Shown: positions 1,799 to 28,321, counted from the stretch's first letter. The stretch: DNA of 47,965 nt from Candidatus Fermentithermobacillaceae bacterium DTU015 (GCA_001513185.1 LFST01000033.1:1-47965); one strand, 5' to 3'. The notes: generated by a model not told the origin, from the sequence alone. Made by a program: numbers and translations.

Positions 1799-1988
1799 GG
1801 ATCAACCCTCTTCCTTCCAAATCCTTTTAACACCCCGGCCTAATATCCTGGCCGGAGTGGGACAACTAGCAATGAAGAAGCCGTGTTGGAAGACCAACCA
1901 AGTTCCAACACAGACGTTGCATGAGGTGACTAGAACACCTGCGAATGCAAACACATAAGCACCACAACACAGGCTCCAGGAGACGCCG

Positions 1989-2618
1989 TCACAACAAGAC
2001 ACACCGTATCGCCGGGATAAGCCTCTGGATAGCCCGCCTTCTGTGGCTGATGGCATCTTTCTCTGAATCAGATGCTTCTCCAAAGGTCTTCCCCAGTTCC
2101 ACCGCATAAAACAAAGGATCATATCCGAATCCGTTGGTTCCCCTAAGTTCCGTATGGACGATCCCTTCTACGCTCCCGGTAGATTCGGCAATCACGCCGC
2201 TTGAGTCAGCCAAGGCAATAGCACACTTGTATCTGCACGTACGCTCGTCCCAAGGAACCCCGTCCAGCAGTTCAAGCAGCAACTTGTTGTTGTCCTCATC
2301 GGTTCCGCTCTGAGAAAAACGGTGCGAATTCACCCCAGGGCCTCCATCAAGTTTGTCTACTTCAAGCCCGGAGTCTTCACCAAGGCATATGTATCCTGAA
2401 TATTCGGTGCCAGCCAAATACTTTGCACCCTCAAGCGCCTTGACCCTGGCATTTTCAGCAAAAGTGCTGCCTGTTTCCTCAATTTCGGGAAGTTCCAGGT
2501 CGATGGCACTCAAAAACCGCCACTGCACCTCTGGGACATACTCGGAAAAAATACGCTTGAACTCTCTGACCTTACCCCGATTGCGCGTTACCACAACGAT
2601 TGTCCTCTTGTCAGCCAT
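1989..2618 (-). CDS. rdgB: XTP/dITP diphosphatase (Ham1/RdgB family)
   Basis: TRNRGK, EETGSTFAENA, EDSGL, GFGYDPLF, SHRRRA motifs; start uncertain (2618-2636). Confidence 0.95.
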   Translation of the reverse strand: MADKRTIVVVTRNRGKVREFKRIFSEYVPEVQWRFLSAIDLELPEIEETGSTFAENARVKALEGAKYLAGTEYSGYICLGEDSGLEVDKLDGGPGVNSHRFSQSGTDEDNNKLLLELLDGVPWDERTCRYKCAIALADSSGVIAESTGSVEGIVHTELRGTNGFGYDPLFYAVELGKTFGEASDSEKDAISHRRRAIQRLIPAIRCVLL

Positions 2619-2890
2619 TTCTACCACCATTCTCAATACAAACCTGCTGTATATACACCTACTTCACGACCATGCTGCCCTCCTTAGCGGATACAGATCA
2701 CCTTGTAGGAACTAGAGTTCTAGTCGGCAACACCCGCCTCGTTCACTACGGCTACGAGGGCCCACAGGTGGCCGACTCCTACGCTAAAAGAGCACACGGC
2801 GCCAAATCACAGCCCCGGTCAAATCCCATTTTCCAGGCCCCTATTCCGCTGCCTCTACTCGGTCGCCTCTACTTCGGTATCACGCTGCCT

Positions 2891-3652
2891 CTATTCCCCA
2901 CTTGCGGGCTGGTTCACAAGACCGATCAAGCCGGCAGCAGGCCCTAACGCTTCCTTCTGGATCTTTACTAAGTTCTCGATGCCCTGTTTGGCAAGGGCCA
3001 ACAGTTGTTCCAAGACCGTAGCAGAAAACGGCGCCTGCTCTGCGGTCCCCTGAATCTCGATAAACTCCCCGCTGCCGGTCAACACAATGTTCATATCCAC
3101 CTCAGCGGCTGAGTCTTCGGCATAGCAAAGGTCCAGCATCGGGACTCCTTGATATACACCGACGCTCACTGCGGCAACATAGTCACGTACGGGGAATTTG
3201 GCCCACTGTTCAGTCTCGTTGAGTTTGGCCAAGGCAAGCGCCAGCGCAACGAAGCCGCCTGTTACCGCTGCTGTCCTGGTCCCACCGTCTGCCTGTATGA
3301 CATCACAGTCGATCCAAACGGTCCTTTCGCCCAGCGCCTCAAGGTCAACCGCTGCCCGCAAGCACCTGCCGATTAGCCGCTGGATCTCCATGGTCCTGCC
3401 TCCCGGCCTGCCACGGGACACTTCCCGGGAAGTCCTGTCCTGTGTGGCACCGGGCAGCATCGAATATTCCGCTGTAACCCAGCCTGAAGACGTACCTTTC
3501 AGAAACGGCGGGACCTTATCCTCGACCATGGCGGTACAGATAACTTTCGTATCGCCCGCTTCAATAAGACAAGACCCCTGAGGATACTTGAGATATCCCG
3601 GGGTAATGATAACCGGCCTTAGTTCGTCTGGTTTCCGGCCGTCGATTCTCAT
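2891..3652 (-). CDS. rph: Ribonuclease PH
   Basis: [40 protein letters not shown]; GAGGTG RBS before ATG 3652. Confidence 0.97.
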
Positions 3653-3900
3653 TTTACGCACCTCTTTGCCCTGCTTTAACTGGTTCTCAGCTATGCTACC
3701 CAAGCTACTCAATTATAATATACAGTTCATCTGCCCGTTGCCAGACCACTCCGGCATCCCTGAGGGGCTTAGCCTGCGCCTATAACATGCCGCCTAAACT
3801 CGCACCTGTAAAGCTATAGCAGGCCGCATGGTGAGGCCACATGCTAGCGCAAGTCACGTGAGTGAGGCGATAAGCGGTACTGACCAGGTCATCTCTCCGA

Positions 3901-4413
3901 TCACTTCAGGAAAGGTGTCACCCCGCCACGGACCGCTCTGGTCTCTAACACGGTCATGAAAGAGTCTGGGGCAAATTCTTCTATTATTGCAGCAAGCCTA
4001 GGTAAACTCTTGCGATCCGTCGACACCAAGAGTACCTGCTTGGGCCCTTTCAACCCATGACCTGTAAGCACTGTGACGCCATATCCGGCTGTCCTTACCG
4101 CCCTGAGCAGCTCTTCGGCATTTTCTTCAGGCGGAATTACTTCCAAAGTTACATGGCCTAATGCCAGCCGCTCCTCCACCCAGCTTCCAAGCAGTGTCCC
4201 TGAAGCAAAACCCAACCCGTATGCCAGCACTTTCAAAGGATCGTCTATGTTGCGCATCACTCTGCCGAGAGCCGTGATATAGATACTGGCTTCCACCAAG
4301 CCGATAGCCGCGGCAGGATACCGTTTTCCTCTTACTACTAATATCATCCTCACTGTTGAAAGGGTAACGTCACATACCCGTGCAAAGAAAATAAGCAGGT
4401 ACTCAAGTAGCAC
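3901..4413 (-). CDS. UPF0316/DUF2179-type membrane protein
   Basis: IFFARVCDVTLSTVR N-terminus, three TM segments, GYGVT and VRGG C-terminal motifs. Confidence 0.85.
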   Translation of the reverse strand: MLLEYLLIFFARVCDVTLSTVRMILVVRGKRYPAAAIGLVEASIYITALGRVMRNIDDPLKVLAYGLGFASGTLLGSWVEERLALGHVTLEVIPPEENAEELLRAVRTAGYGVTVLTGHGLKGPKQVLLVSTDRKSLPRLAAIIEEFAPDSFMTVLETRAVRGGVTPFLK

Positions 4414-5240: not shown

Positions 5241-5589
5241 TGGTGGAGGCGGAGGGAATTGCACCCTCGTCCGCAGACAATCGAGTTTCAGTCTCTACGA
5301 GCGTAGCTCCGGTATTGATCTCGCAAGGTAAGCCGCCCCGGAGCGGGCTTCTTGCCTTGCCAGCTCAGAATCAGATTCCCTGTAAGGTCCCGAGCAGCCC
5401 CTTACAGGTATCTTCCCTGATGACGGTAACTCAGGGATAGGGAAGAACTCTCCCTGGTACCGTGGCCGCTATCTTAGGCAGCCAGTGCGTAGTTTGTGTT
5501 GGCAGTTATTTGTTTGCCGCTTTTGTGGGTTGCGGCCCCCATGCTCGCTACTCAAACCCAACTGCCTACGTCGAACCTAATTCGCCCCC
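5241..5589 (-). ncRNA. ssrA: tmRNA; tag peptide (A)ANTNYALAA
   Basis: 5' GGGGGCG..GGTTCGAC; 3' GAGGGTGCAATTCCCTCCGCCTCCACCA; ATAACT followed by resume codon GCC at 5503 to TAA at 5474-5476. Confidence 0.97.
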
Positions 5590-5679: not shown

Positions 5680-6639
5680 CTAGCCCTCGCGGGCAGAACA
5701 TAGCATTTCTGCGGCAACCTCATCTGTCACCAGCATATCCAGGTACTTGCCTCTTAGAGCGGCCAGGATCGCCGCAGCTTTCGTTTTGCCTCCCGCTACG
5801 CCGATGACTGTCTTTGTCTCACGCAGCTGATCCAAGCTAACTGCAATCAGAAGATCCTTACCACCTTCCATGCTTTCACCCTGGCTGTCGATGAACCTGC
5901 CACACAGGTCTGCCGCAACTTGCTTACCTGTACGTTCCTCAGCAGCCCTGACCCTTGCCAAGAATGCGGGGTCTCTGCTCAAGACGGTGCCCCCGATCCC
6001 TACAAGCGCGATATCCAGGGAGTCCCAGCGGTTAACACAGTCGGCAACGAGCCTTTCGTTCAGCAATGCTTGCTTGACTTCTATGCAACTCACGTAATAC
6101 GGCACGTTGAGATACACGCATTTTGCACCAAACGCCTCGGCAGCCTGGCGGGCCATCTCATTGACCTGGAAGTAGGAATCAAACAAGCCTGCGCTACCTG
6201 CTAGGGGCACTATGTAAGAAGAAGGCAAAGGGACCTTGCCTGAGAGATAGTTCACCGTCTGGTAAACAGTAGTACCTCGACCGATCCCGATGGTGTCGCC
6301 GTCTTTGGCGTACGACTCAAGTAGCCGCGCCCCTGCCCTGCCGATCCTCTGCTTGACCACATGATCGTCCTGAGATCCTGACACTACAACTGCCTTTTTC
6401 AGGCCATACAACTGCTCGAGCCTGCGCTCTAGTTTCTCTAGCACAATCCGGGGGTCAACTATGGAAATCCGGACTATACCCTTCTCCTTTGCAGTTGACA
6501 GCATCCTTGAAATGGATACCCTTGACACGCCGATGATATCAGCGATTTCTTGTTGGGTCAGGCCCTGCTCGTAATACATCTCGCACACATGCAACAGTAA
6601 GTCTATATCATGATCCTCTTTACGTACGGCCAATAGCAC
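5680..6639 (-). CDS. SorC/DeoR-family sugar-binding transcriptional regulator
   Basis: YYEQGLTQQEIA..GVSRVSISRML HTH; GIGRGTT, VGIGG, VAGGKTKA, LVTDE sugar-binding domain. Confidence 0.95.
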   Translation of the reverse strand: MLLAVRKEDHDIDLLLHVCEMYYEQGLTQQEIADIIGVSRVSISRMLSTAKEKGIVRISIVDPRIVLEKLERRLEQLYGLKKAVVVSGSQDDHVVKQRIGRAGARLLESYAKDGDTIGIGRGTTVYQTVNYLSGKVPLPSSYIVPLAGSAGLFDSYFQVNEMARQAAEAFGAKCVYLNVPYYVSCIEVKQALLNERLVADCVNRWDSLDIALVGIGGTVLSRDPAFLARVRAAEERTGKQVAADLCGRFIDSQGESMEGGKDLLIAVSLDQLRETKTVIGVAGGKTKAAAILAALRGKYLDMLVTDEVAAEMLCSAREG

Positions 6640-6923: not shown

Positions 6924-7772
6924 TCAGCCAAGGATGTTGAAGTAGCCCAATCCGAAGCCGGCTACAAACAGTATGAGTATGATGCGGTTGGGTGACGCTC
7001 CTTTTCTTAAGAGGTTCCAGACAACCAAAACTGCAGCAAGCGGAAGCAGGTTTGGAACAAGTTTGTCGAAAACCGCCGTCTGAATATCAATCGTAACCCC
7101 GCCGATAAGCACCTGAGACACCAGCCTGAAATTCACATACCTAGCGGTCAAAGACCCGGCAGCCATCAGCCCGATGAAGTTCACTATCGAAGTTGCGGTC
7201 TGAAGCAAGCCGCTTTCGGTAAGTTGCTCAATAATCCGCCCGCCCTGCTCATATGCAACCATAAACCACCAGTAGCTCAGAGGAAGGGATATGCCATTGA
7301 CAAGTATTGTGTACACTAAGGGGCCTGCGACATTGCCTTCCAGTCCCATAGATATCCCCAAAGCCAGCAGGATGGGGATCAGCATCCCCTGAAAAATGGA
7401 GCTGCCAAGACCGTTGAGAGGCCCCATAAGAGAGGTCTTTACTTTGTTGATTGTATCGTCGGTAAGAGGCGCCCCGTTCGCCCTCTGCTCTTCCATAGAC
7501 GCCATGATCCCGGCGGCTATGGTTCCGGCTGTATAATCCGTGTCGAAGAATACCAGATGCCGCTTGAGCGCCGCAACGATATCCTCCTTCAAGACATACA
7601 GCCTCCGTATCACCGGGATCATGGCATGGCAAACACCTACAGCCGACATCCGCTCGTAGTTCATCATCCCGCCCAAGCAGGAGATCCAAATCGCCCAGAC
7701 TTTGAAGAGGTCAATCTTCGTAAGTCGCTTGGTCTTGTGCGTTGTCTCTGAGTGCGTCTGTAGTTCGGTCAT
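6924..7772 (-). CDS. PTS mannose/fructose/sorbose family IID subunit (second, divergent-pocket paralog)
   Basis: NYERM, ALKRHLVFF, MEEQRANG, LMGPL motifs; GGGGAGG RBS before ATG 7772. Confidence 0.93.
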   Translation of the reverse strand: MTELQTHSETTHKTKRLTKIDLFKVWAIWISCLGGMMNYERMSAVGVCHAMIPVIRRLYVLKEDIVAALKRHLVFFDTDYTAGTIAAGIMASMEEQRANGAPLTDDTINKVKTSLMGPLNGLGSSIFQGMLIPILLALGISMGLEGNVAGPLVYTILVNGISLPLSYWWFMVAYEQGGRIIEQLTESGLLQTATSIVNFIGLMAAGSLTARYVNFRLVSQVLIGGVTIDIQTAVFDKLVPNLLPLAAVLVVWNLLRKGASPNRIILILFVAGFGLGYFNILG

Positions 7773-8013
7773 CCGGTGTTCGAACCTCCCCTTTGTTGGA
7801 TGATGCACAATGCCGGCATCCACTTTGTGTTCTATCTATACTTCTGTTATCTCTGTTATCTCTGCTTGTGCGTCTGGTTGTGTATCTCCAGTGCTACATC
7901 TCTCGCGCCGTGCAGCTTCGCTCGAGCAATCTGATACCGGCTGTTTTGCTTGGCCTTTTGTCCTTCTGTTTGGCCCCTACTTGGCCCACAGCCAGCCGGG
8001 AGCTATTCCGAGC

Positions 8014-9177
8014 TTACTTGTAAGCCAGTTTCAGGATTTCCAGCACATCAGGTACTTCCAGGGTCTTTATGGCCCCGATAGGCGTCCTGGCTCCGCTCCG
8101 CTCCGCTATAACCTCCAATGCTTCCTCGGGAATGCCTACCTCGCTAAGCCTTACAGGCATACCCACACTCTTGAAGAACTCTTCGGTCCTCCTGATACCC
8201 TCAAGCGCGGTTGCACGCAGGTCGTTGAAATCAGGCTCCACGTCCCATACCCTCACTGCAAATTGTGCAAACCGCGGGATGTTGGCATCAAACACGTATT
8301 TCATCCACGCAGGAGTGACTATGGCCAAGGTGGCGCCATGGATTGTATCGTACAGGCCGGTGACCTCACCTGCAATTGCGTGGCAGCATCCATCACTGCC
8401 CCTGCCTACTCCCAAGATCCCGTTCTGGGCCATGGTGCTCGCCCACAGGATCTGGGCCCTGGCGTTGTAATCATCAGGCTTCTCAAGTACCTTGGGCAGA
8501 TACTTGATTATCGTCCTGAGGGTTGCCTCGCTTAGGCGATCGGTGAGATCTACGTCAACATCGCTGGTGAAATACTTCTCCATGATGTGGGACATGGCGT
8601 CCACGCCGCCTGCTGCCGTGTGGTACGCAGGCACGGTATACAGCAACTCAGGGTTAAGAATGGAGAACTTGGGCCTTATCAAGGGGCTTATGAATGCCCG
8701 CTTGAGATTGGTCTCCTCGTTGGTGATTACCGAGCAGTTGCTGGTTTCGCTGCCTGCAGCTGCTACCGTAAGGATTACGCCTACAGGAAGGGTTTCCTTG
8801 ACCTCCGCTTTTCTCAGGAAGAAGTCCCATACGTCCCCCTCGTAAGGCACTCCCATGCCGATGGCTTTGGCAGTGTCAATTACGCTGCCGCCGCCCACTG
8901 CCAGAATCAAGTCCACATTTTCCCTGCGGCACAATTCTATACCCTCTTTAACCAGGGAGAGCCGCGGGTTGGGGACCACTCCGCTGAGTTCCACAAATTC
9001 AATGCCTGCTTCTTTCAAGTAACCTACGACCTTGTCGTATAAGCCGATTTGCTTAATGACGTCGTAGTATACCAGCAGCACCTTATTGCCGTATTGCTTG
9101 ATTTCATCTACTACGAGCGCTTCTGTGTCCTTGCCGAAAATAATCTTGGTGTCACAATGGAATTCAAAGTTGCGCAT
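8014..9177 (-). CDS. Iron-containing alcohol/aldehyde dehydrogenase (Bdh/YqhD-like)
   Basis: GVVPNP, AVGGGSVIDTAK, AAAGSE; D..SH, H and HG metal ligands. Confidence 0.93.
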   Translation of the reverse strand: MRNFEFHCDTKIIFGKDTEALVVDEIKQYGNKVLLVYYDVIKQIGLYDKVVGYLKEAGIEFVELSGVVPNPRLSLVKEGIELCRRENVDLILAVGGGSVIDTAKAIGMGVPYEGDVWDFFLRKAEVKETLPVGVILTVAAAGSETSNCSVITNEETNLKRAFISPLIRPKFSILNPELLYTVPAYHTAAGGVDAMSHIMEKYFTSDVDVDLTDRLSEATLRTIIKYLPKVLEKPDDYNARAQILWASTMAQNGILGVGRGSDGCCHAIAGEVTGLYDTIHGATLAIVTPAWMKYVFDANIPRFAQFAVRVWDVEPDFNDLRATALEGIRRTEEFFKSVGMPVRLSEVGIPEEALEVIAERSGARTPIGAIKTLEVPDVLEILKLAYK

Positions 9178-9328
9178 ATCTTTCCTCCTTGCCGTCTCGT
9201 GCCTTTAGACTCAGTGCTTCGCCGGCCGGCACCTTAAGCACCGTATACGCCAGGCTAGCGCACCACCCGTGGCCTCTGCCGTAACCGTGCTTCCCGTAGC
9301 CGTGCCTTGTGGGGGCCGGGGCGTGTGC

Positions 9329-10177
9329 TCACACCCGGCCCGCCGAATCGAACACCTTGATATAGTGCTTGATGGCTTCCTTGTAAGCTTTTGCCCCTGC
9401 GTCATACACCATCCGCATAGGCTTAAAGCCAAGCCCTTTGACCTCGCCTGTCTCCAGGAACTCCTTCATCCCGTTTGTGCCTGCAATCATCAGGTCACTC
9501 CATAGGTTTACCTTGCAAATCCCAGTCTTGGCTGCCCTGTGGAGGTTGTCATCGCCTGTGGATGAGCCACCGTGCAGCACCAGAGGTACCGGGACCATTT
9601 CCCGGAGCTTGGCCAGGCGGTCAAAATCCAACTTAGGAGTGCCCGAATACATACCGTGGGCGGTCCCCACAGCTACAGCCAGGCAATCCACTGATGTCTG
9701 TTTGACAAACTCTACCGCTTCCTCGGGTACGGTAAGCGCAGCATCCCTGTCTACTTCATAGCGGCTGCCCATACCCACGTGTCCCAGCTCCGCTTCCACC
9801 GATACGTCCACAGCGTGGGCCATCTTCACCACTTCTGAAGTAATCCGGACGTTTTCCTCAAAGGACAGGGTTGAACAATCGATCATCACCGATGTAAAAC
9901 CGAGCCTTACCGCCTTTACGGTCGCCTCGAAACTGCGTCCATGGTCCAGATTGAGGGCCGCAGGCACTTCAGGATAGCGCCGGGCGTAGAACCTGGCCAT
10001 ATCGGCCAACGCTTCCATATCGTTGTGTTCAGAAACATCAAGGACTATGGGCGCCCTTAGTTCCTTGGCTGCCTGAAAGGCTGCTTCGGTAGATTGCATG
10101 TCATGTACGCCCGGCGCTGCCACAGCGTATCCCTTTTCCCTTGCATCTTCCAGCAACACGCCCATTTTCACCAGCAT
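9329..10177 (-). CDS. Class II (Zn) ketose-phosphate aldolase, atypical
   Basis: LDHG, SVMID, EAELGH, VGTAHG, LHGGS, KVN; AGGAGG RBS before ATG 10177. Confidence 0.9.
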   Translation of the reverse strand: MLVKMGVLLEDAREKGYAVAAPGVHDMQSTEAAFQAAKELRAPIVLDVSEHNDMEALADMARFYARRYPEVPAALNLDHGRSFEATVKAVRLGFTSVMIDCSTLSFEENVRITSEVVKMAHAVDVSVEAELGHVGMGSRYEVDRDAALTVPEEAVEFVKQTSVDCLAVAVGTAHGMYSGTPKLDFDRLAKLREMVPVPLVLHGGSSTGDDNLHRAAKTGICKVNLWSDLMIAGTNGMKEFLETGEVKGLGFKPMRMVYDAGAKAYKEAIKHYIKVFDSAGRV

Positions 10178-10220
10178 GGGGATCCGCCTCCTGTCACAAT
10201 ACACTCAGCCTACTCGCAAC

Positions 10221-11282
10221 CTACATGGTCACAACTACACGGTAGGTGTTGTTGAACGATGCAAGCGCAAGCGCGTCTTCCACCTTTTCCAGCGGGAAGG
10301 TAGTCTCGATAAGGGGCTTTACGTCGATAAGCCTCTTGGACAAAAGCACCCCTGCCTGGTACATGTCCAACCGGTTCTTGCTCACCACACCGGTCACGTT
10401 GATGCCTGTACGGTGGACCATGTTGGGATCCAGCTCCAGAGGCGCTGCTGGGTGCGCTGACGCGAACAACATGATCGTGCCCTCAGGGCCTACCAAGCGC
10501 AGGGCATCGTCGTTGACCGCTTTGTTACCCACAGCGGTGATCACTGCGTCCGCTCCCCGGCCGTCGTTGAGGGCCTTGAGCTGTTCGACAATGTCACCCT
10601 TTTCAGGATCCAGCTCAGCGTGGGCTGCAAGTTCCAGGGCCTTCTTCCTCCTGGCAGGGTCAAGGTCGCTTACCACCACAAAGGCCCCTCTCAGCCGAGC
10701 CAGCATCATGTTGAGCAACCCCATGGTACCTGCGCCGATAACTACGACAGTCTGCCCAAGTTTGATGTCCAGTTTGTTGGTACTCTGGACGACACAGGCC
10801 ACAGGCTCAACAAAAGAAGCTTCTTCAAACGCGAGGTCGGGAGACATCTTGACTAGGCTCTCAACGTCAGACACCGCATATTCGGATAACCCGAAACTCC
10901 CTATTATCTCCTTGCCCGTTTCGGGGTCGATGGCTTTCGACCTGCCTCCGCCGGCTACTACGCATAGCCGTGTGAGCCCGACGGAGCAGTAGTGGCACGC
11001 ACCGCAGCTCCCTGTGCCTGCCCGGGCGACATGATCCCCTACCTTGAGTTCGGTCTTAGTACCAGGCCCGATGGCTTCTACCACGCCTGCGACCTCGTGG
11101 CCCCAAACTCCGCCGTATCCCCAGTCGGTAATGCCCGCGTACATCCTCTGTTCCATGGTGCACAGCGAACACGCACGCTGCCTAACGAGCACTTCTCCCG
11201 TCTTCGGCTCGGGGATTTCTACCTCCCTAATCTCAATTTTCCGCGGTTCGACCATTACAACCGCCCTTGATTTAATGGACAT
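10221..11282 (-). CDS. Zn-dependent MDR dehydrogenase (sugar/polyol-phosphate type)
   Basis: CTME, GHE, CxxCxxC-x7-C structural Zn site, EPVAC, GAGTMG. Confidence 0.92.
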   Translation of the reverse strand: MSIKSRAVVMVEPRKIEIREVEIPEPKTGEVLVRQRACSLCTMEQRMYAGITDWGYGGVWGHEVAGVVEAIGPGTKTELKVGDHVARAGTGSCGACHYCSVGLTRLCVVAGGGRSKAIDPETGKEIIGSFGLSEYAVSDVESLVKMSPDLAFEEASFVEPVACVVQSTNKLDIKLGQTVVVIGAGTMGLLNMMLARLRGAFVVVSDLDPARRKKALELAAHAELDPEKGDIVEQLKALNDGRGADAVITAVGNKAVNDDALRLVGPEGTIMLFASAHPAAPLELDPNMVHRTGINVTGVVSKNRLDMYQAGVLLSKRLIDVKPLIETTFPLEKVEDALALASFNNTYRVVVTM

Positions 11283-11322
11283 TGCTCTTCCTCCAAGATA
11301 CGTTATTCATCCAAAAACACGC

Positions 11323-11793
11323 TTACTCATCCAGCATTTTTGGATTGTCGTCAGGCAAAATCCTGAACTCTACAGGAACTCCCATGCGCTTAATCTCCCT
11401 GAGCATTTCCAATTCCTCGTCGCTCATGGAAATGTTCCTGTAATACTGCTTCCTGCCTGGGGCAGCCCCCATACCGCCTACGTTGAGCAGGCTAAACTTG
11501 ACTCCGGCCTTGAGCAGCTCCAAGGGAGCCACAGGAGTCTTGGCCAAGACGACTACCTTCTCGTCAGGCTGACCAGGATCAGTGAACAGTGCTGCAGCAT
11601 CTTCAATAGTGAATGCTTCCACAGATATTCCAGGAGGAGCTGCAAACTTAAAAATCTGCAGGGAGAACTGGTCTTTTGCTACCAAGTCATCTACGATTAT
11701 GATCCGCTTGGCGCCTGAGCGCTTGAGCCAGTTGGTCATTACCTGTCCGTGGATGAGTCTGTCATCGATACGGAAAAGGTCTATCTGCAGCAT
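11323..11793 (-). CDS. PTS mannose-family IIB subunit
   Basis: RIDDRLIHGQV phospho-His motif; LNVGGM. Confidence 0.96.
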   Translation of the reverse strand: MLQIDLFRIDDRLIHGQVMTNWLKRSGAKRIIIVDDLVAKDQFSLQIFKFAAPPGISVEAFTIEDAAALFTDPGQPDEKVVVLAKTPVAPLELLKAGVKFSLLNVGGMGAAPGRKQYYRNISMSDEELEMLREIKRMGVPVEFRILPDDNPKMLDE

Positions 11794-11819
11794 TTATGTG
11801 ACCTCCTTAACTCTTTGGT

Positions 11820-12221
11820 TTATTTGAGTTCTCTGAGTTCAGCACCTAGGTCTGTAAGCCCTTCCAGTCCTGCCTTCAGGGCCTCGCTTACCAGGTCAGA
11901 CAGGCTGGCCGATTCCCTGCTCAACAGGATGTGCAGCAACATGGGAAGGTTGGCACCTGTCAGACATGCGACAGAATCAGAAAGCATCATGGCTGCTATA
12001 TTGCCGGGCGTGCCTCCCTTTAGGTCAGCCAGTAGCAGCACTTCTGCGTCAGGGCCATACTTCTCGATGTTGGTCTTTACACGTTCTGCGTAAGCTTCAG
12101 GCGAGTCCCCAGGGTGCAACCCTGCTGTAAACAGCTTTTCTTGCTTGCCGCATATCAATTCAGCAGCGCTGAGCAATCCTTCAGGAAATTCGCCGTGGCC
12201 AAGGATTCCTATGACCACCAC
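11820..12221 (-). CDS. PTS mannose-family IIA subunit
   Basis: GHG, DLKGGTPGN, GANLPML motifs. Confidence 0.95.
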   Translation of the reverse strand: MVVIGILGHGEFPEGLLSAAELICGKQEKLFTAGLHPGDSPEAYAERVKTNIEKYGPDAEVLLLADLKGGTPGNIAAMMLSDSVACLTGANLPMLLHILLSRESASLSDLVSEALKAGLEGLTDLGAELRELK

Positions 12222-12259
12222 TGTGCCTCAACCCCTTTTCCACGTGTTTTGAAGCAAAC

Positions 12260-12285
12260 CCCGGAGGGCAAGAGCGCCCTCCGGG
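12260..12285 (-). terminator. Intra-operon hairpin (terminator or stabiliser)
   Basis: Perfect 10-bp stem CCCGGAGGGC/GCCCTCCGGG, short U run on minus strand. Confidence 0.5.
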
Positions 12286-12300
12286 CCCCTGTGCTGTCGT

Positions 12301-13365
12301 CTACAACTGACGCTTTATACCCAGGCCGATGTCCAGAACCACACGGTAAGCTCCGGGACGGATTCCGTGTTCAAAAGCTTCCTGGATCTGCTCGAAGGGA
12401 TATACTGCTTCGACCAGCTTATCCAGCTTGAAACGCCCGTCACTTACCAGCTTCACTGCCCGGTAGAAGTCATATTTCTTCGGGCTGACCGTGCCTACCA
12501 GGTTGACTTCGCTGTAGTGGATCTTGTTGAGGTCGATCTCGGCTTCGTCTCTCATGGCACCATGATACGAAGTATACAGCACTACAGGAGCTCCCTGCCT
12601 GCAGACTTCGATTAGACCGGGTACGATGGACTGGGGTCCGCCGGTAACCAGCACTGCATCCAGGCCCTTACCATGGGTAAGGTCCATGATCTGTTCGGCC
12701 AAGCCCTCAGTAGGATCGATAACCTCATCGGCGCCGAACTCCCGGGCCAGCTCGTGGCGGTCACGGTTGACCTCAGATACAATCACCCGTGCGCCTTTCA
12801 GGCGAGCGAGGGTAACGTGGATGAGACCCATGACTCCCGCACCCACTACCAGCACGTCATCACCAAAGGTGATGTTGGCCTTGTCGACGCTGCTTACGCA
12901 GCAAGCCACCGGTTCGGTGAGGGATGCTGCTACCTTATCCACAGGCGCTGTGAACTTGAACACCTGGTATGCAGGTACAATCAAGTATTCCGAAAAGCCA
13001 CCGGGTCCGGGCTGCCGTCCGGGCCTGTGGAGCTTCCTACTGTTAAGGCACCTGTTGTCGGTGTAGGTGCGGCAGTTAACGCACTCGTGACACCTGTTGA
13101 TCCTCGAAACCGACACATGGTCCCCGGGCTTTATATCATTTACTACTTCTGAGCCTACTTCTTCGACTATACCGGAGATCTCATGCCCCATGTAGGCTGG
13201 ATAAGTACCGGCCCGTTCTCCTGTGTACACTCCTCTTTCAGAGGTGCAGATCGCTGTGGCCAAAATCTTGACGCGGACTTCGTCCGGCCTCAGCTCAGGC
13301 ATCTCCCAGTCTACTAGTTCGAATTGTCTTGGTCCTGTAAGTCGTGCTACCTTGAATGTTGACAT
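12301..13365 (-). CDS. Zn-dependent MDR dehydrogenase (sugar/polyol-phosphate type)
   Basis: CTSE, GHE, CxxCxxC-x7-C, EPVAC, GAGVMG. Confidence 0.92.
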   Translation of the reverse strand: MSTFKVARLTGPRQFELVDWEMPELRPDEVRVKILATAICTSERGVYTGERAGTYPAYMGHEISGIVEEVGSEVVNDIKPGDHVSVSRINRCHECVNCRTYTDNRCLNSRKLHRPGRQPGPGGFSEYLIVPAYQVFKFTAPVDKVAASLTEPVACCVSSVDKANITFGDDVLVVGAGVMGLIHVTLARLKGARVIVSEVNRDRHELAREFGADEVIDPTEGLAEQIMDLTHGKGLDAVLVTGGPQSIVPGLIEVCRQGAPVVLYTSYHGAMRDEAEIDLNKIHYSEVNLVGTVSPKKYDFYRAVKLVSDGRFKLDKLVEAVYPFEQIQEAFEHGIRPGAYRVVLDIGLGIKRQL

Positions 13366-13384
13366 TGACTGGCACCTCCATCAA

Positions 13385-14233
13385 TTAAGCTTTGCCTGAT
13401 GCCCCCAGCTTCCTGAGATAGTCTCTGATAACCGGCTCTGCGGCTTCGTTGGCTGTCTTCCAAATACGCACTGCAGTTAGCCTCTCCAAAGGTTCGGATT
13501 CGATAATTTCCTTTACCTTCTTGCGGATAGGAATCTGAAGGTCAGTAAACACGTTCACCTTGGACACGCCTAGCGGAGGAGTCTGCTCCAAACCAGGGGT
13601 TCCGGAGCCTCCGTGGATAACCAAGGGAACATCCACTGTTTCTGAGATCTGCTTGAGCCTTTCAAGATCGATCTTCGGCTCAAAGGTGTAAAGCCCGTGG
13701 GCTGTACCTACTGCAACTGCCAGGAAGTCTACGTTGGTCAGTTCCACAAAACGCTTGGCATCTTCAGGTTTGGTGAGATACTTTTCCATGTCCTCTTGGG
13801 TAGGTGCCTGGCTGCCTACTCCCACATGGCCCAATTCAGCCTCAACGGACACACCGCATGCGTGAGCTATGTCGACGATCTGGCGGGTAAGCCTGACGTT
13901 TTCGTCGAAAGATTCCTGGGAAGCGTCTATCATCACAGAGCTGAATCCGTCGCGGATGGCCTGGATGATGATCTCGAAGGTCTTCCCGTGGTCCAGGTGA
14001 AGTGCTACCGGAACCTTGGCCTTCCTTGCGGCAACCTCAGCGATGGCTGCAAGGTAGGTAGTACCGTATGCTTTGATTGTGCCTTCCGCAGCTTCAATGA
14101 GACAGGGGGCATTTTCTTCTTCACATACTTTCACCACGGTCATGATGCTCTGCATATCCGTGATGTTAAAGGCCGGTACGGCGTAGCCTTCCTTGCGTGC
14201 CTTATCTAGAATTTCTTTGGTGTTGACTAACAT
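13385..14233 (-). CDS. Class II (Zn) ketose-phosphate aldolase
   Basis: AFN, LHLDHG, EAELGH, VGTAHG, HGGSG, KVN; GGAGG RBS before ATG 14233. Confidence 0.92.
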   Translation of the reverse strand: MLVNTKEILDKARKEGYAVPAFNITDMQSIMTVVKVCEEENAPCLIEAAEGTIKAYGTTYLAAIAEVAARKAKVPVALHLDHGKTFEIIIQAIRDGFSSVMIDASQESFDENVRLTRQIVDIAHACGVSVEAELGHVGVGSQAPTQEDMEKYLTKPEDAKRFVELTNVDFLAVAVGTAHGLYTFEPKIDLERLKQISETVDVPLVIHGGSGTPGLEQTPPLGVSKVNVFTDLQIPIRKKVKEIIESEPLERLTAVRIWKTANEAAEPVIRDYLRKLGASGKA

Positions 14234-14367
14234 GTATTGCACCTCCGCGCCTATTTTGTGGCATTACTGCCTGTATATCTTTCCCCAGGTCCATTCTTTG
14301 TGAATCATGATTTTCAGGCCCGGGGCACGTGCATCCAGCCCTCTCAAAAGGCACACCAGCCGGGTGC

Positions 14368-14398
14368 CGGGGTGAGCCCGCTTTATGAGCTCACCCCG
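14368..14398 (-). terminator. Intra-operon hairpin after IID
   Basis: 10-bp stem CGGGGTGAGC/GCTCACCCCG with no U tract; more likely stabiliser than terminator. Confidence 0.4.
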
Positions 14399-14407
14399 TA
14401 GGAGTAC

Positions 14408-15244
14408 TCAGCCGATGATGTTGAAATAACCTAGTACAATACCGATTCCGAACAGGGCAAAGATGATGTGGTTGACCTTTTTGCCCTTCCTCAGCAAGTG
14501 CCATACACCCAATACGAGCAGAAGTGGGAGCAAGTTGGGGATAAGCTGGTCCAGCACTGCTGTTTGGATGTTTACAGCCGGCATGTCGCCGATAGCTATC
14601 TCAGCCACCAACCCGAAGTTGATGTACTTCGCAGTCAGGGCGCCTGCAGCCATTAGTCCGACGAAGTTTACCGCAGACATCGCTGTCTGGAGCAGGCCGC
14701 TTTCAGTGAGGCTCCCGATTAGCTGTCCACCCTGCTTGTACGCTGCCTTAAACCACCACCACATGAGCGGGTAGGTAATACCCAGGATGAGCACGCTAAA
14801 CACGATGGGGCCTGCAACGTTCCCCTGGAGTCCCATGGATATTCCAAGGGCAACCAGAATGGGGATGAGCATGCCTTGCCAGATGGAGTCACCCAATCCA
14901 GCCAAGGGGCCCATCAAAGAAGCCTTCACGCTGTTGATCATTTCACCGGTCAAAGGCGCACCATTTGCCTTTTGCTCTTCCATTGAGGCCATAATACCGG
15001 CGGCTATGGTACCCGTGGTAGTGTTAGTGTTAAAGAACACCAGGTGACGCTTGAGCGCTTCTACTCTTTCTTCCTTGGTGTCGTATAGCCTATTGATGAC
15101 CGGGATCATGGAGTGGCATACGCCCACACCTTGCATGTTCCTGTAGTTGTACATGCCATGCAAGAAGCTGCACCAGATCGCCCATACCTTGAAAAGGTCA
15201 CCGTTAGTCAGTTTCTTCTCGACTCTGGCTTCCTTAGCGGACAT
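14408..15244 (-). CDS. PTS mannose-family IID subunit (canonical-pocket paralog)
   Basis: NY..MQ, FFNT, GPLAGLGDSIW motifs; start overlaps IIC stop. Confidence 0.95.
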   Translation of the reverse strand: MSAKEARVEKKLTNGDLFKVWAIWCSFLHGMYNYRNMQGVGVCHSMIPVINRLYDTKEERVEALKRHLVFFNTNTTTGTIAAGIMASMEEQKANGAPLTGEMINSVKASLMGPLAGLGDSIWQGMLIPILVALGISMGLQGNVAGPIVFSVLILGITYPLMWWWFKAAYKQGGQLIGSLTESGLLQTAMSAVNFVGLMAAGALTAKYINFGLVAEIAIGDMPAVNIQTAVLDQLIPNLLPLLLVLGVWHLLRKGKKVNHIIFALFGIGIVLGYFNIIG

Positions 15245-15987
15245 TAACCTTCAACCCCCTTTACACCCCGGTGAGCCAGCAAGGCTACACAGGTTCCGAG
15301 AATGACCACTGCCATGATGTCCAGGTTGAGGTAGGATGCAAGCACAAATCCGATGAAGAACGCAGGCAGCAGTTTTGTATCTTCAGCCATGTACCGCAGA
15401 AGCATGGCATAACCTACTGCAGGCAGGAGCTTACCTGCTACAGTGAGCCCATGGAGCAGCTGGTCAGGCATGGCACCGATAAGAGACTCAATGGGGCCCG
15501 CTCCGTAGTACATAGCCAGGAATGTGATGAGACCAGGGTTGATTGCGGCCCACAGGGTGCCGGGGACGATGTTCATGAATGCGATCCCCCGCAGGTTGCC
15601 CTCTTCGGCCATCTTGTCCACAACTCCGGGAAGCAACGAGAACAGGGACATCTTTAGCACGTTAAGGGATGCTCCTGCCACTGCTACAGGAACTGCAAAC
15701 GCCAAGGCTACCTCAGGTTCCATGTCCGTCAAAATCCCCAGGGCAGTTGCCAGTGTACCTGCAATCAACGTGTCAGCAGGCATCGCACCGCCTACACTCA
15801 GAACTCCGATGTATACGGCATTGACCATGGCACCGATGATTGTGCCTTTTACAGGATCTCCTAGAATCAAACCGATTACGAAGCCGTTAACTAGGGGCCT
15901 TGAAAATGCATAGAATCTGGTGTTGAGAGTCAACGGTGATCCTAGCCAAGTGGCCCACAATGCTACTGCAATCGCTTTCCACAACAA
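15244..15987 (-). CDS. PTS mannose-family IIC subunit
   Basis: RPLV, GDP..G.IIGA, VGGAMP, LPAVGYAMLL. Confidence 0.95.
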   Translation of the reverse strand: MLWKAIAVALWATWLGSPLTLNTRFYAFSRPLVNGFVIGLILGDPVKGTIIGAMVNAVYIGVLSVGGAMPADTLIAGTLATALGILTDMEPEVALAFAVPVAVAGASLNVLKMSLFSLLPGVVDKMAEEGNLRGIAFMNIVPGTLWAAINPGLITFLAMYYGAGPIESLIGAMPDQLLHGLTVAGKLLPAVGYAMLLRYMAEDTKLLPAFFIGFVLASYLNLDIMAVVILGTCVALLAHRGVKGVEG

Positions 15988-16075
15988 GGCTTAAGCCCTC
16001 CTTTCGAATTGATTACCGAGACAAACCCTAGAGCGAAACCTCCGTCCGAGTGCTCCTCTATGCCTGCCCCCCTCC

Positions 16076-16101
16076 TGTACATTTGTTCTTGCACATGTTC
16101 A
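16076..16101. promoter_or_regulatory. Palindromic operator TGWACAT-N12-ATGTTCA (candidate SorC-family site)
   Basis: TGTACATTTGTTCTTGCACATGTTCA, directly downstream of a sigH-type -10; 20/26 identical to the site at 28488-28513. Confidence 0.75.
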
Positions 16102-16102
16102 T

Positions 16103-16129
16103 ATTCGACATCAAACACAGAACTCCTTC
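16103..16129 (-). promoter_or_regulatory. SigH-type promoter of the PTS operon
   Basis: GAAGGAGTT-N11-GTCGAAT, close to the SigH consensus RNAGGAWWW-N11/12-RNNGAAT. Confidence 0.65.
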
Positions 16130-16194
16130 TGGGGTTTGAGGATTTCGTCGATTTTTGGCGTGTTAAAGGATGGCAGTGTCAACAATAATGAACT

Positions 16195-16218
16195 GGATAA
16201 CCACTCTAGCGGTTATCC
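16195..16218 (-). terminator. Probable terminator downstream of smpB
   Basis: GGATAACC-N8-GGTTATCC stem followed by a T-rich run on the minus strand. Confidence 0.5.
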
Positions 16219-16373
16219 GGCAATTTAAGCAGGTCATTTGCCGCTTGATCTTGGGGACAGAGCACTTCCATAGTCCTTAAGCGAAGGACTAAAGAGGGGC
16301 AAACAGAAGGTGATAGAGAAGAAAAACAAGGCACAGCGTCAGGACCATAGCCTGTAAGCCTGGTGAAGCCATA

Positions 16374-16841
16374 TCAATAATCCCTTTGCCTCACGGCCCT
16401 CCTGGCTTCACGCTCAAGGTCCCTTTCTCTGATAGCTTCCCGCTTATCGTAAGATTTCTTACCGCGGGCAAGGGCCAGCTCAACCTTAGCCTTGCCGTCC
16501 CTGAAATAAATGGAAAGGGGTACGAGAGTGTAGCCCCGCTGGGCCACCCTAGATGCCAGCTTCCTGATTTCTCTCTTATGAAGCAAAAGACGCCTGGGGC
16601 GCAATGGGTCGTGATTGAACCTGGCTGCCGGCTCGTATTGATCGATATGGGCATTTTTCAGAAATACCTCGCCATCTACTACCTGGGCATAAGCATCCTG
16701 CAAACTTGCCCTGCCCGCCCTGAGGGACTTGACCTCTGTCCCAATAAGGGCAATGCCGGCCTCGATCACTTCTTCGATTATATAATCATGCCTGGCTCTC
16801 CTGTTTCTCACTACCGTCTTGACATTGTCCCGCTTTTTCAT
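16374..16841 (-). CDS. smpB: SsrA-binding protein
   Basis: NRRARHDY, EAGIALIGTEVKSLR, LLLHKREI, GKKSYDKRE. Confidence 0.98.
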   Translation of the reverse strand: MKKRDNVKTVVRNRRARHDYIIEEVIEAGIALIGTEVKSLRAGRASLQDAYAQVVDGEVFLKNAHIDQYEPAARFNHDPLRPRRLLLHKREIRKLASRVAQRGYTLVPLSIYFRDGKAKVELALARGKKSYDKREAIRERDLEREARRAVRQRDY

Positions 16842-20139: not shown

Positions 20140-21408
<1,269 letters not shown>

Positions 21409-21433
21409 TCACCCCGCTCAATTCACAAAGATT

Positions 21434-22984
21434 TCAATAGATTATCAGGCTATCCCTGTCCATCTCTTCCGGTTTTTCCAATTCCATTATGTCCAATATG
21501 GTGGGGGCGACATCAGCAAGAATCCCTTGCCTCAGCCCCTTCACTGCCCGCCCCCGGACCTTGTTGTCCCTGGTCACCAGTATGCACGGCACATTGTTGG
21601 AGGTGTGATACGTATGGCTGCGCCCTTCTTCTGAGGTCTCAGTAAGTTCCTCTACGTTGCCGTGGTCTGCGATTACAAGTGCCGCGCCGCCCTGTTCCAA
21701 GATCACGGGGATGAGCCTGCCCACGCACTGGTCCACCACTTCAACCGCTTTCTTGGCCGCCTGGAAACATCCTGTGTGGCCCACCATATCAGGGTTGGCG
21801 TAGTTGAGCACCACAAAGTCGTACTTGCCGCTCTGTATCCTCCTGATAGCTTCATCGGTGACCTCAGGCGCGCTCATCTCAGGTTTTAGGTCATAGGTGG
21901 CTACTTTGGGCGAAGGGATGAGGCACCTGTCCTCACCTGGGAAAGGGTCCTCCCGCTTGCCGCTGAAAAAGAATGTCACGTGAGCATACTTCTCGGTCTC
22001 GGCGATCCTCAGCTGGGTAAGGCCTGCGTTTGAAATCACCTCGCCCAAGGTGTTCTTGAGGATGAGAGGCGGATATGCAAAATGCCCGGCTAGGTCTTCT
22101 TCGTACCTGAGCATACCTACAAAGCAGACTTTGGGATGCTTGGTCCTAGGGAACCCTTCAAATTCGTCGTCGCAGAACGCGTGGCTGATCTGCCTTGCCC
22201 TGTCAGCCCTAAAATTGAAGAACACAAGGGAATCGCCGTCTTGCACCACAGCCCCGTCAGCTATCACCGTGGGATATACAAACTCGTCGGTCTCCCCTTT
22301 GGCATACGCAGTCTCAAGGGCATCCCGCCAATCGCTTGCAGGCCTCCCCTTGCCCAGTGTGAGCATATCGTAAGCAGCTTGGGTCCTGTCCCATCGCCTA
22401 TCCCTGTCCATGGAGTAGTAGCGCCCTGTGATGGAAACCAGTTTTCCAGTGCCCACCTCAGCCAGTTTTTTCTCCAGGGCCTCAAGATACACACCGGCTG
22501 ATTGGGGGGGTACGTCCCGGCCGTCCAGAAAGGCATGGACGAACACTTTATCCAGGCCATGCTGCTTCGCCAGGGCAAGCAGGGCATACAGGTGTTCCTG
22601 GTGGCTGTGAACCCCACCGTCGGACACAAGGCCCATAAGGTGGAGGGCACTGCCATTTTGCTTAACATTTTCGATGGCGCCCAAGAGAGCAGGGTTTTGG
22701 AAAAACGCACCCCGCTTTATATCATTGGAAATCCTCACAAGATCCTGGTACACAATCCTGCCTGCTCCTATATTGAGATGCCCTACGTTTGAGTCGCCCA
22801 TCTGCCCGGGCATGAGCCCCACGGCTTCGCCTGCGGCTTCCAGACAGGTGCTCGGGTACTGCTCTATCAGTCTCTTCATATTATCTATGTTTGCCTGGGT
22901 CACTGCGGTGGGAGCTTCGCAGGACGAAATCCCCCATCCGTCAAGTATGACCAGGACTACAGGTCTAGGCCTTGCCACTTTCAT
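21434..22984 (-). CDS. gpmI: 2,3-bisphosphoglycerate-independent phosphoglycerate mutase
   Basis: ILDGWG, QMGDS, SDGGVHSH, AETEKYAHVT, DMVGHTG; start at 22984/22978 (upstream ORF extension overlaps tpiA). Confidence 0.97.
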   Translation of the reverse strand: MKVARPRPVVLVILDGWGISSCEAPTAVTQANIDNMKRLIEQYPSTCLEAAGEAVGLMPGQMGDSNVGHLNIGAGRIVYQDLVRISNDIKRGAFFQNPALLGAIENVKQNGSALHLMGLVSDGGVHSHQEHLYALLALAKQHGLDKVFVHAFLDGRDVPPQSAGVYLEALEKKLAEVGTGKLVSITGRYYSMDRDRRWDRTQAAYDMLTLGKGRPASDWRDALETAYAKGETDEFVYPTVIADGAVVQDGDSLVFFNFRADRARQISHAFCDDEFEGFPRTKHPKVCFVGMLRYEEDLAGHFAYPPLILKNTLGEVISNAGLTQLRIAETEKYAHVTFFFSGKREDPFPGEDRCLIPSPKVATYDLKPEMSAPEVTDEAIRRIQSGKYDFVVLNYANPDMVGHTGCFQAAKKAVEVVDQCVGRLIPVILEQGGAALVIADHGNVEELTETSEEGRSHTYHTSNNVPCILVTRDNKVRGRAVKGLRQGILADVAPTILDIMELEKPEEMDRDSLIIY

Positions 22985-23068
22985 TCCCCCGTTAACACGC
23001 GCTGTACGCACCGCTGCCGTCACAAGACCGGCGCCGCACAGCCGCCAAGATCGCCCTGTATCAAATTC

Positions 23069-23093
23069 CGGGGGTGCGGCTAGAGCACCCCCG
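23069..23093 (-). other. Intercistronic hairpin tpiA/gpmI
   Basis: CGGGGGTGC-N7-GCACCCCCG perfect stem. Confidence 0.5.
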
Positions 23094-23126
23094 TACACCT
23101 CGCATATTTTGCCAGGCTCATGCCTG

Positions 23127-23909: not shown

Positions 23910-23978
23910 GTCCTACGCTCCTCAATATCCGTTCGCTAAACCCGGCTGTACCTTCCCGGCCAAAGCCCTATCCCAGGC

Positions 23979-25163: not shown

Positions 25164-25197
25164 GGAAGTTACCCCCTTAATACCGGCTGACACCTAA

Positions 25198-26301
<1,104 letters not shown>

Positions 26302-28032: not shown

Positions 28033-28051
28033 TGCCTAACCTCCAATGTAT

Positions 28052-28321
28052 TCAGGATGTAGCTTCAGCACCGCGCATGATAAGGTCCACTAAAGACTCC
28101 AAAGCTTCAGCCTCGTCTTCGCCTTCAGCGCGGATAAGCAAGCTGTCTCCCTGTTTGGCACCTAAGGACAGGACCTGCAAGATGCTTTTCCCGTTGGCCG
28201 TCTTCCCGTTAGCTTCCAGGGTAATCTGGCTCTTGAACTTAGCCGCAGTTTGTACAAACAAAGCTGCAGGCCTTGCGTGTAATCCGACTTCGCTTTGAAC
28301 CACGACTGTTTGTTCCACCAT
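28052..28321 (-). CDS. ptsH: Phosphocarrier HPr
   Basis: GLHARPA (His15) and NGKSI (Ser46). Confidence 0.96.
   Translation of the reverse strand: MVEQTVVVQSEVGLHARPAALFVQTAAKFKSQITLEANGKTANGKSILQVLSLGAKQGDSLLIRAEGEDEAEALESLVDLIMRGAEATS

Follow-up and report, generated by a model that had tools for sequence, protein, structure and literature searches.

One IIC and two IID genes in a mannose-family phosphotransferase operon of an anaerobic-digester bacterium

The 47,965-nucleotide stretch of DNA from the anaerobic-digester bacterium Candidatus Fermentithermobacillaceae bacterium DTU015 that was analyzed in this study (LFST01000033.1; hereafter called the window) carries an operon for a mannose-family (Man-family) phosphotransferase system (PTS) in which eleven co-directional genes span positions 15987-5680 of the minus strand. 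This operon encodes only one membrane subunit IIC (15244-15987), which is accompanied by two IID subunits. IID-1 (14408-15244; 278 residues) holds the usual place directly after IIC, and the second copy, IID-2 (6924-7772), lies near the far end of the operon. Our tentative interpretation, to which we assign somewhat less than an even chance of being correct, is that IID-2 shares IIA, IIB and IIC with its paralogue and forms a second permease with a remodeled site, which would open a second substrate route. To our knowledge, the pairing of IIC with IID in Man-family PTS permeases is regarded as fixed, and their choice of substrate is poorly understood.

One IIC gene and two IID genes in a single operon

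The genes of the operon are arranged in the order IIC, IID-1, aldolase-1, Zn-dependent alcohol dehydrogenase 1 (Zn-ADH-1), IIA, IIB, Zn-ADH-2, aldolase-2, iron-containing alcohol dehydrogenase (Fe-ADH), IID-2 and a SorC/DeoR-type regulator. IIC (PF03609, 225.5 bits) is the sole Man-family IIC match in the genome, and its stop codon and the start of IID-1 (PF03613, 279.8 bits) overlap by 1 base. IID-2 is not directly downstream of any IIC, as Fe-ADH and a spacer of 241 nucleotides precede it. Although the open reading frame as listed runs from 6924 to 7823 (299 residues), the ATG at 7772 is most likely the start of IID-2, as judged by the sequence GGGAGG located 12 nucleotides upstream and by the homologues P0002 through P0006, which start at this position. 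The protein matches PF03613 with 262.6 bits (cut-off 25) over profile positions 2-265 of 265.

By BLASTP, the two IID proteins are colinear and identical at 184 of 269 positions (68%, E 7e-134) with a single 1-residue gap. This alignment recovers all of the long identical blocks that a first-pass annotation of the window had pointed out (DLFKVWAIW, ALKRHLVFF, GTIAAGIMASMEEQ, QGMLIPIL and LTESGLLQTA), together with every motif change it had listed from IID-1 to IID-2, namely HGMY to GGMM, MQG to MSA, FFNTN to FFDTD, GPLAG to GPLNG, GLGD to GLGS and SIW to SIF. Both proteins score below the cut-off of the NCBIfam model TIGR00828 (196.7 bits for IID-2 and 205.2 bits for IID-1, versus 292.75 bits) and still further below the cut-offs of the other NCBIfam IID models (PRK11103, AgaD and AgaE). 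Therefore, no named specificity can be given to either paralogue.

The same annotation had read the operon as carrying one IIC and two IIDs, and this count is borne out not only in the operon but also by a search of the whole assembly (1.73 Mb in 61 contigs, 93.8% complete), which yields one IIC, two IIDs and one IIB. Such an imbalance, for which the annotation had proposed a survey of genomes, proves to be rare. Among 40 relatives, ten carry Man-PTS genes, and the number of IIC genes equals that of IID genes in nine of these; the extra IID match in the tenth, G026, is only a 51-residue fragment. Man-PTS genes are also present in 32 of 300 further genomes sampled from the phylum, again with equal counts in all 32 (49 IID and 49 IIC). 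Equal numbers are thus found in 41 of the 42 other Man-PTS genomes, and among the genomes surveyed only that of the window has an unpaired IID. A limited literature search returned no PTS paper on a second or unpaired IID among the 20 of its 46 matches that were listed.

The physical linkage of the two genes is similarly consistent. As we read the coordinates, the two genes are adjacent in 48 of 49 IIC-IID pairs of the phylum sample, and the members of the remaining pair (G082:C1:294969-299040) are 2.7 kb apart. An alignment-based scan of contigs produced 573 relatives, and the 80 best ones serve here as the related loci. The gene immediately upstream of IID is an IIC in 78 of these 80 loci, and in the other two the end of the contig is reached first. 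Two genomes (G325:C32 and G273:C12) carry two complete IIC-IID pairs in tandem within ~4 kb, and one of these pairs reads as a single open frame of 552 residues.

An ordinary explanation would be that IID-2 has a dedicated IIC in the missing ~6% of the genome or in a collapsed contig, such that a normal permease pair is merely encoded by scattered genes. We consider this improbable, even though the assembly is incomplete and divided among many contigs, and equal numbers of IIC and IID are the rule elsewhere. Given the adjacency described above, a lone IIC would be as odd as a lone IID. Moreover, IID-2 is embedded in an operon that is intact and lies on a contig of 48 kb, it is separated from the upstream Fe-ADH gene by a spacer of only 241 nucleotides, and it duplicates the very IID that is paired with the resident IIC. 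The first-pass annotation had allowed for a dedicated second IIC elsewhere, and none is present in the assembled 93.8% of the genome.

IID-2 is an intact and conserved paralogue

A protein search revealed five further clusters, defined at 90% identity, that carry the IID-2 signature described below: P0002 and P0003 (96-97% identity), P0004 (81%), P0005 (80%) and P0006 (74%). A maximum-likelihood tree of 39 IIDs contains a six-member IID-2 clade with support values of 100/100. The IID-1 clade, which likewise has six members, is its sister (100/95), and the grouping of both clades is supported at 100/99. The existence of two sister clades of six members each indicates that the duplication is older than several lineages. 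Between the two paralogues of the window, the nonsynonymous divergence (dN) is 0.26, and synonymous sites are saturated (proportion of synonymous differences, pS, 0.75). With its open frame, this low dN at saturated synonymous sites and a well-supported clade of six members, IID-2 is an intact, conserved paralogue that is not decaying. Neutral decay of the second IID, an outcome that had been raised in the first-pass annotation, is not seen.

The two copies have not changed at the same pace. The path leading from the duplication node to IID-2 is about twice as long as the path to IID-1 in the 39-IID tree. Relative-rate comparisons that use the two nearest outgroups assign 42 unique changes to IID-2 versus 24 to IID-1 (p = 0.027) and 45 versus 21 (p = 0.003), respectively. 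With two farther outgroups the corresponding counts are 35 versus 27 and 33 versus 27, which are not significant. P0002 and P0003, the closest relatives of IID-2, carry Thr in place of a near-invariant Met in the motif MEEQRANG. A single-protein scan of genome contigs with IID-2 yielded no relative.

Replacement of family-invariant residues in IID-2

We aligned 199 IIDs, comprising the two from the window, 117 proteins and 80 translated loci, with some entries duplicated. The 187 sequences that fall outside of the IID-1 and IID-2 clades were used for comparison. The IID-2 signature consists of G34, M37, S43, D77, D79, Y80, N120 and S124. Position 77 is Asp in all six members of the clade, versus Asn in 185 of the 187 other IIDs and Asp in none of them. 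Position 124 is Ser or Thr in all six members, versus Asp in every one of the 187. Less strictly, position 43 is Ser or Ala in five of six (Gln in 166 of 186 others), and position 120 is Asn or Thr in five of six (Ala in 181 of 187). G34, M37, Y80 and also K110 occur in none of the other aligned IIDs. Thus the family-invariant Asn of the FFN motif and the Asp of the GxGD motif are replaced in IID-2 and its five clade relatives by Asp and by Ser or Thr, respectively. Positions 43, 77, 120 and 124 correspond to Q38, N73, A116 and D120 of Escherichia coli ManZ.

These clade-specific changes fall in the most conserved motifs of the N-terminal region, in agreement with the earlier claim that the substitutions lie at family-conserved motifs. 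When the 48 columns conserved at a level of at least 85% are considered, IID-2 departs from the consensus at seven, of which three are common to IID-1. The latter retains the invariant pair as N72 and D119, and its clade has two departures of its own: the sequence NYER (residues 35-36 being the altered ones) is changed to NYRN, as in IID-1 itself, or to NYRS in all six members, versus Glu in 183 and Arg in 179 of 186 others. It therefore seems that both paralogues altered conserved motifs after the duplication, with IID-2 being the more deeply changed.

Several features of the replacements bear on what they might mean. Their fixation within the clade argues for constraint over drift. Furthermore, the paired change reads as if a carboxylate has been relocated and not lost, with an Asp removed at GxGD and Asp residues gained at FFN and two residues farther on. 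The exchange of His, Tyr and Gln for Gly, Met and Ser should enlarge the site. However, since the Asn and Asp are kept almost without exception in the comparison set, and also in ManZ and AgaD, they look like core or mechanistic residues and not like ordinary determinants of specificity. As judged from the alignment, the change in IID-2 would be more radical than a simple adjustment of specificity. In ManYZ, the cores of IIC and IID clamp the sugar (PMC8021565). Passages of PMC8021565, PMC12915331, PMC13543919 and PMC13190303 give no residue-level description of the sugar site.

Predicted association of IID-2 with the resident IIC

A model of the complex of IIC and IID-2 has a score of 0.69, versus 0.00 for the best of three controls. 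In the calibration, 58 of 80 solved complexes score at least this high, as do 2 of 110 mismatched pairs, although these counts provide only a rough calibration because our own alignments were used in the complex model. Contact agreement between runs is at least 83%, and the predicted local distance difference test (pLDDT) value of the partner is at least 76. IID-2 is placed on the sole IIC with a confidence like that of true pairs; the first-pass annotation had proposed to model IIC with each of the IIDs. Because ManYZ-like complexes have been solved, the favorable score may derive from memorized structures, and indicates likeness to such complexes and not binding by this particular copy.

The modeled contacts to IIC include G34, M37, Y80, S124 and G274 of IID-2, and D77, D79, S43 and N120 are absent from the confident contacts. 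For an AlphaFold2 monomer of IID-2 (pLDDT 72.6, which is of moderate quality), the structural matches at E <= 0.001 comprise 13 IID chains of Man-PTS systems, with template modeling (TM) scores of 0.57-0.60, in keeping with a ManZ-like fold. For ManZ-type chains the E values reach down to 3.6e-14, and the sequence alone matches 6k1h_Z with E 8.3e-45.

The operon appears to combine two cassettes

The two enzyme sets of the window operon are found in separate operons in relatives, each with its own IIC and IID. Locus L002, from a metagenome-assembled genome (MAG) of Candidatus Fermentithermobacillaceae, has the order regulator, IIC, IID, aldehyde:ferredoxin oxidoreductase (AFOR), aldolase-1, Zn-ADH-1, IIA and IIB, with parts that are 50-70% identical to those of the window. 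L003, likewise from a Candidatus Fermentithermobacillaceae MAG, carries IIC, IID, Zn-ADH-2 and aldolase-2 at 57-64% identity, and its IID is a canonical member of the P0021 clade. The arrangement IIC-IID-ZnADH-aldolase recurs in L009, and G004, which belongs to the same genus as the window, has IIA-IIB-IIC-IID-ZnADH-aldolase. The single-cassette operons of L002, L003 and G004 each have a single IIC and a single IID that bears the canonical Asn and Asp, and none includes IID-2 or Fe-ADH, whereas both enzyme sets are merged behind one IIC in the window. These arrangements indicate that the window operon is a merger of two cassettes, each made of a PTS, a Zn-dehydrogenase and a class II aldolase, that now share one IIC, IIA and IIB.

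The first module of the window comprises a class II ketose-bisphosphate aldolase (13385-14242; PF01116, 302 bits) and a Zn-dependent medium-chain dehydrogenase (12301-13365; PF08240 and PF00107), which are 69.5% and 63.7% identical to the respective enzymes of L002. The second module comprises another such dehydrogenase (10221-11282; PF00107 and PF08240), which shares 59% identity with its counterpart located after IIC-IID in L003, and another class II ketose-bisphosphate aldolase (9329-10204; PF01116, 292 bits), which is 63.7% identical to that of L003. IID-2 was not brought along by this second module, because relatives pair Zn-ADH-2 and aldolase-2 with an IID of the P0021 clade, and IID-2 is sister to IID-1. 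Rather, it is a duplicate of the resident IID-1 lineage. Such a descent is expected if IID-2 had to remain compatible with the resident IIC. The first-pass annotation had seen a fit between a second IID and the doubled dehydrogenases and aldolases. IID-2 is not of the IID type that accompanies module 2, and the doubled enzymes (43% identity for the aldolases and 32% for the Zn-ADHs) have diverged far beyond the IIDs.

As the operon joins two cassettes that occur separately in relatives, IID-2 might be nothing more than the relic of another permease, which would have lost its IIC when the operons fused, and would then be intact but functionless. The longer branch of IID-2 relative to IID-1, as well as the Met to Thr change of P0002 and P0003 in the conserved MEEQ motif, can be cited in its favor. 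We regard this explanation as very improbable, however, since the duplication is old, as evident by the saturated synonymous sites, and yet dN is low. In addition, at least four diverged lineages have kept the frame and the same signature, and IID-2 differs from the IID type of module-2 operons.

Some hints regarding the chemistry of the pathway are provided by the enzymes that flank these modules. The AFOR gene of L002 (3245-5248) encodes a tungsten-type enzyme (PF01314/PF02730) and lies between IID and aldolase-1; the window lacks it and has Fe-ADH in module 2 instead. Locus L081 has a gap of similar size (~1986-3972) at the AFOR position, with the domain scan having been done for L002 only. 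The presence of AFOR in the L002 operon and of Fe-ADH in the window operon suggests that the aldolases may release a free aldehyde, for example from a ketose 1-phosphate.

The location of the operon is also informative with respect to its origin. The PTS genes and the regulator form a 10.8-kb block between smpB (16374-16841, minus strand; PF01668, 204.8 bits) and the transfer-messenger RNA (tmRNA) gene ssrA (5241-5589, minus strand; identified by ARAGORN with the tag ANTNYALAA, and by Rfam RF00023). In genomes of the same genus, smpB and ssrA are near-adjacent, with a spacing of ~105-110 nucleotides in G006 and G002 and of at most ~660 nucleotides in G003. Therefore, the operon seems to be an accessory insertion at the smpB-ssrA junction. 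In G004, a regulator orthologue with 75% identity directly follows smpB.

Representation of the operon in RNA libraries

Between 80% and 97% of the sampled words of the operon are present in six metatranscriptome runs from five studies. In each of four RNA libraries, which derive from four studies, a contig bridges Fe-ADH into IID-2 (X15, 7375-16028; X16, 7240-16400; X18, 7461-10973; X20, 7710-9608). The 3′ half of IID-2 (~6924-7375) is covered by separate contigs of lower depth in X15, X18 and X20. The Fe-ADH contig of X20 has a depth of 201 versus 5-18 for the rest; contig depths cannot be used to rank the genes. Furthermore, the deep contigs that cover the regulator extend into the tmRNA gene. 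Position 16028 is the end of the X15 contig and position 16009 that of the X18 contig, and these ends hint at best weakly at a transcript start.

A possible second permease built on the resident IIC

We propose that IID-2 is a neofunctionalized paralogue of the resident IID. Lacking a dedicated IIC, IIA or IIB, it would assemble with the single IIC of the operon and would draw phosphate from the common relay of Enzyme I (EI), HPr, IIA and IIB, such that the cell would possess two kinds of protomer, IIC/IID-1 and IIC/IID-2. In the latter, the IID half of the substrate clamp would be remodeled by movement of the carboxylate from GxGD to FFN, by the added Asp two residues beyond, and by the exchange of His, Tyr and Gln for smaller residues. 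This protomer would then admit a second substrate to the two-cassette operon. The IIC/IID-2 pair would presumably form in the cell and carry out transport, and the second substrate would presumably feed Zn-ADH-2, aldolase-2 and Fe-ADH. A more specific version, in which IID is an exchangeable module that allows one IIC and one IIA/IIB pair to build two permeases, and in which the moved carboxylate and enlarged site alter the substrate or the hydroxyl group that is accepted, is possible but rather doubtful. If it is true, the specificity of Man-PTS permeases could evolve by duplication of IID alone.

The first-pass annotation had likewise viewed the duplicate IID as a partner of the single IIC that confers a second specificity. 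Favorable to this view are the intact and conserved state of the paralogue, the lack of an IIC of its own in the operon and in the assembly, the contigs from RNA libraries, the placement of IID-2 on IIC by modeling, and the position of the clade-specific changes in strongly conserved motifs. The role as a decoy or bacteriocin receptor that the annotation had offered as an alternative gains no support from the analysis, which yields no evidence against it either. The part of the claim that fares less well concerns specificity, as the Asn and Asp changes look mechanistic.

A number of other observations also weigh against the formation of a second permease. The invariant Asn/Asp pair is found across IIDs that are annotated for different sugars, E. 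coli ManZ and AgaD included, and a change at the equivalents of ManZ N73 and D120 could abolish a core step instead of retuning specificity. The placement of the changed residues in the sugar pocket is itself only presumed. The IID-2 residues at the modeled IIC contacts show no higher conservation between IID-1 and IID-2 than the other residues (68% versus 69%; Fisher p = 1.0), and the presence of five of seven clade-specific novel residues at the modeled interface, compared with 2.6 expected, is not significant (p = 0.067). The approximately twofold faster evolution of IID-2 relative to IID-1, as seen with the nearest outgroups, fits relaxed constraint as well as adaptation. There is also little genomic context with which to compare IID-2. 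No IID-2-type gene is present among the best 80 of the 573 relatives, where the best match is 65% identical, and a scan of JGI metagenomes found one locus of the IID-1 type and no gene of the IID-2 type. For clade members P0004 through P0006 the comparison covers the protein sequences. Finally, a genome completeness of 93.8% leaves room for an unassembled IIC, and the RNA-library contigs fall short of proving transcription because they may include DNA carry-over.

The conservation pattern of the Asn/Asp pair raises the prospect that IID-2 does not transport at all. It could be a modulatory subunit that docks on IIC and, having lost this pair, yields inactive or gated protomers that tune or shut the permease, or that sense a ligand. 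Asp at position 124 and Asn at position 77 are retained by the other IIDs regardless of the annotated sugar, which is the pattern expected of mechanistic residues. IID-2 is located behind a 241-nucleotide spacer and comes last in the operon save for the regulator gene, it has been modeled onto IIC, and it evolves faster than IID-1; each of these observations suits a modulator. On balance we consider this role unlikely. The replacements are themselves fixed (Asp at position 77 and Ser or Thr at position 124 in all six clade members) and look like a relocated carboxylate, not a loss. The regulator is SorC-type and lacks the PTS regulation domain (PRD) or Enzyme II (EII) domain that is the usual route of PTS sensors, and no precedent for such a subunit emerged from the limited literature search. 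Moreover, a second enzyme set without its own transporter would stay unexplained. A non-transporting modulator, if it does exist, would mean that transporters of this family can be controlled in a new way.

Should the formation of a second permease be correct instead, one IIC would serve two IIDs, and IID could set specificity alone. IID-1 and IID-2 would then constitute a matched pair on the same IIC in which to dissect what the invariant Asn and Asp do. It would also mean that a fermenter with a small genome has widened its range of sugars by the addition of one 0.85-kb gene.

Comparison with known Man-family systems

The ManXYZ system of E. coli, in which ManY is IIC and ManZ is IID (6K1H, 7DYR), has the families PF03609, PF03613, PF03610 and PF03830 in common with the window operon. 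In ManXYZ, a single IID accompanies each IIC and the two genes are neighbors, whereas the window has two IIDs for one IIC. ManZ, which is 36% identical to IID-2, retains Q38, N73, A116 and D120, where IID-2 has Ser, Asp, Asn and Ser, respectively.

Sharing of PTS components between permeases has a likely parallel in the E. coli aga cluster. There, the Man-family permeases AgaBCD and AgaVWE presumably share a common soluble phosphocarrier, the IIA protein AgaF. The annotation of E. coli K-12 places agaV and agaB/C/D in one cluster beside the class II aldolase gene kbaY. However, neither IIC nor IID is common to the two Aga permeases, whereas the common part in the window would include the membrane subunit IIC. 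In addition, AgaD of the galactosamine type retains the Asn and Asp that are both replaced in IID-2.

The window operon also resembles the L-sorbose PTS operon of the Klebsiella type, in which a SorC-type regulator accompanies Man-family EII genes. Among enterobacteria, the loci closest to the IIDs of the window (Klebsiella, Raoultella and Yersinia; 36-41% identity) carry a SorC-like regulator followed at some point by IIB-IIC-IID, and we take these loci to be sor operons. SorE, the Zn-dehydrogenase of the L-sorbose operon, is a sorbose-1-phosphate reductase. The window operon has the PF04198 regulator, the EII set and two Zn-ADHs, the last of which match only generic relatives among threonine and polyol dehydrogenases in the PDB. 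Unlike the sorbose operon, the window operon has no SorD of the short-chain dehydrogenase/reductase type, and has instead two Zn-ADH/aldolase sets, Fe-ADH and a second IID.

Other genes and sequence features of the operon and its surroundings

The operon genes and features described below, as well as the EI and HPr genes, are on the minus strand. The soluble PTS components of the operon are a Man-family IIA (11820-12221; PF03610, 73.5 bits) with GILGHG at its N-terminus, and a sorbose-subfamily IIB (11323-11793; PF03830, 156.2 bits) that includes RIDDRLIHGQ and is the sole IIB match in the genome. We take these His-containing N-terminal motifs to be the phosphorylation sites. The Fe-ADH gene (8014-9177; PF00465 and PF25137) encodes an iron-containing alcohol dehydrogenase of the aldehyde reductase type, whose top NCBIfam model, PRK15138 (271.8 bits), is under its cut-off. 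No counterpart scoring at least 100 bits is present in any of 81 related loci. The operon carries no kinase gene.

The SorC/DeoR-type regulator (5680-6639; PF04198, 204.6 bits) has a helix-turn-helix and a sugar-binding domain and shares 47.5% identity with the regulator that precedes the L002 operon. A profile search found no PRD or EII domain in it. With a sugar-binding domain and neither of these two, the regulator suits a catabolic operon and not a PTS sensor circuit.

The spacer that precedes IID-2 (7773-8013) contains a purine-rich direct repeat (cagagataacagagataacag), and a variant in RNA library X16 lacks 4 + 12 nucleotides at 7913/7918. No Rfam match was found in the spacer at E <= 0.1. 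Scans for promoters and terminators gave a yield close to the shuffled expectation. A strong stem-loop with 11 base-pairs, nine of them G-C, and a T-poor tail lies between Zn-ADH-1 and IIA (12260-12285).

The general PTS proteins are encoded 10-12 kb from the operon (26302-28318), with EI at 26302-28032 and HPr at 28079-28318. Within the region 20140-28318 of the window, these two genes adjoin the glycolytic genes gap-pgk-pgm-eno, and genes for pyruvate phosphate dikinase, its regulatory kinase and a membrane pyrophosphatase are located nearby.

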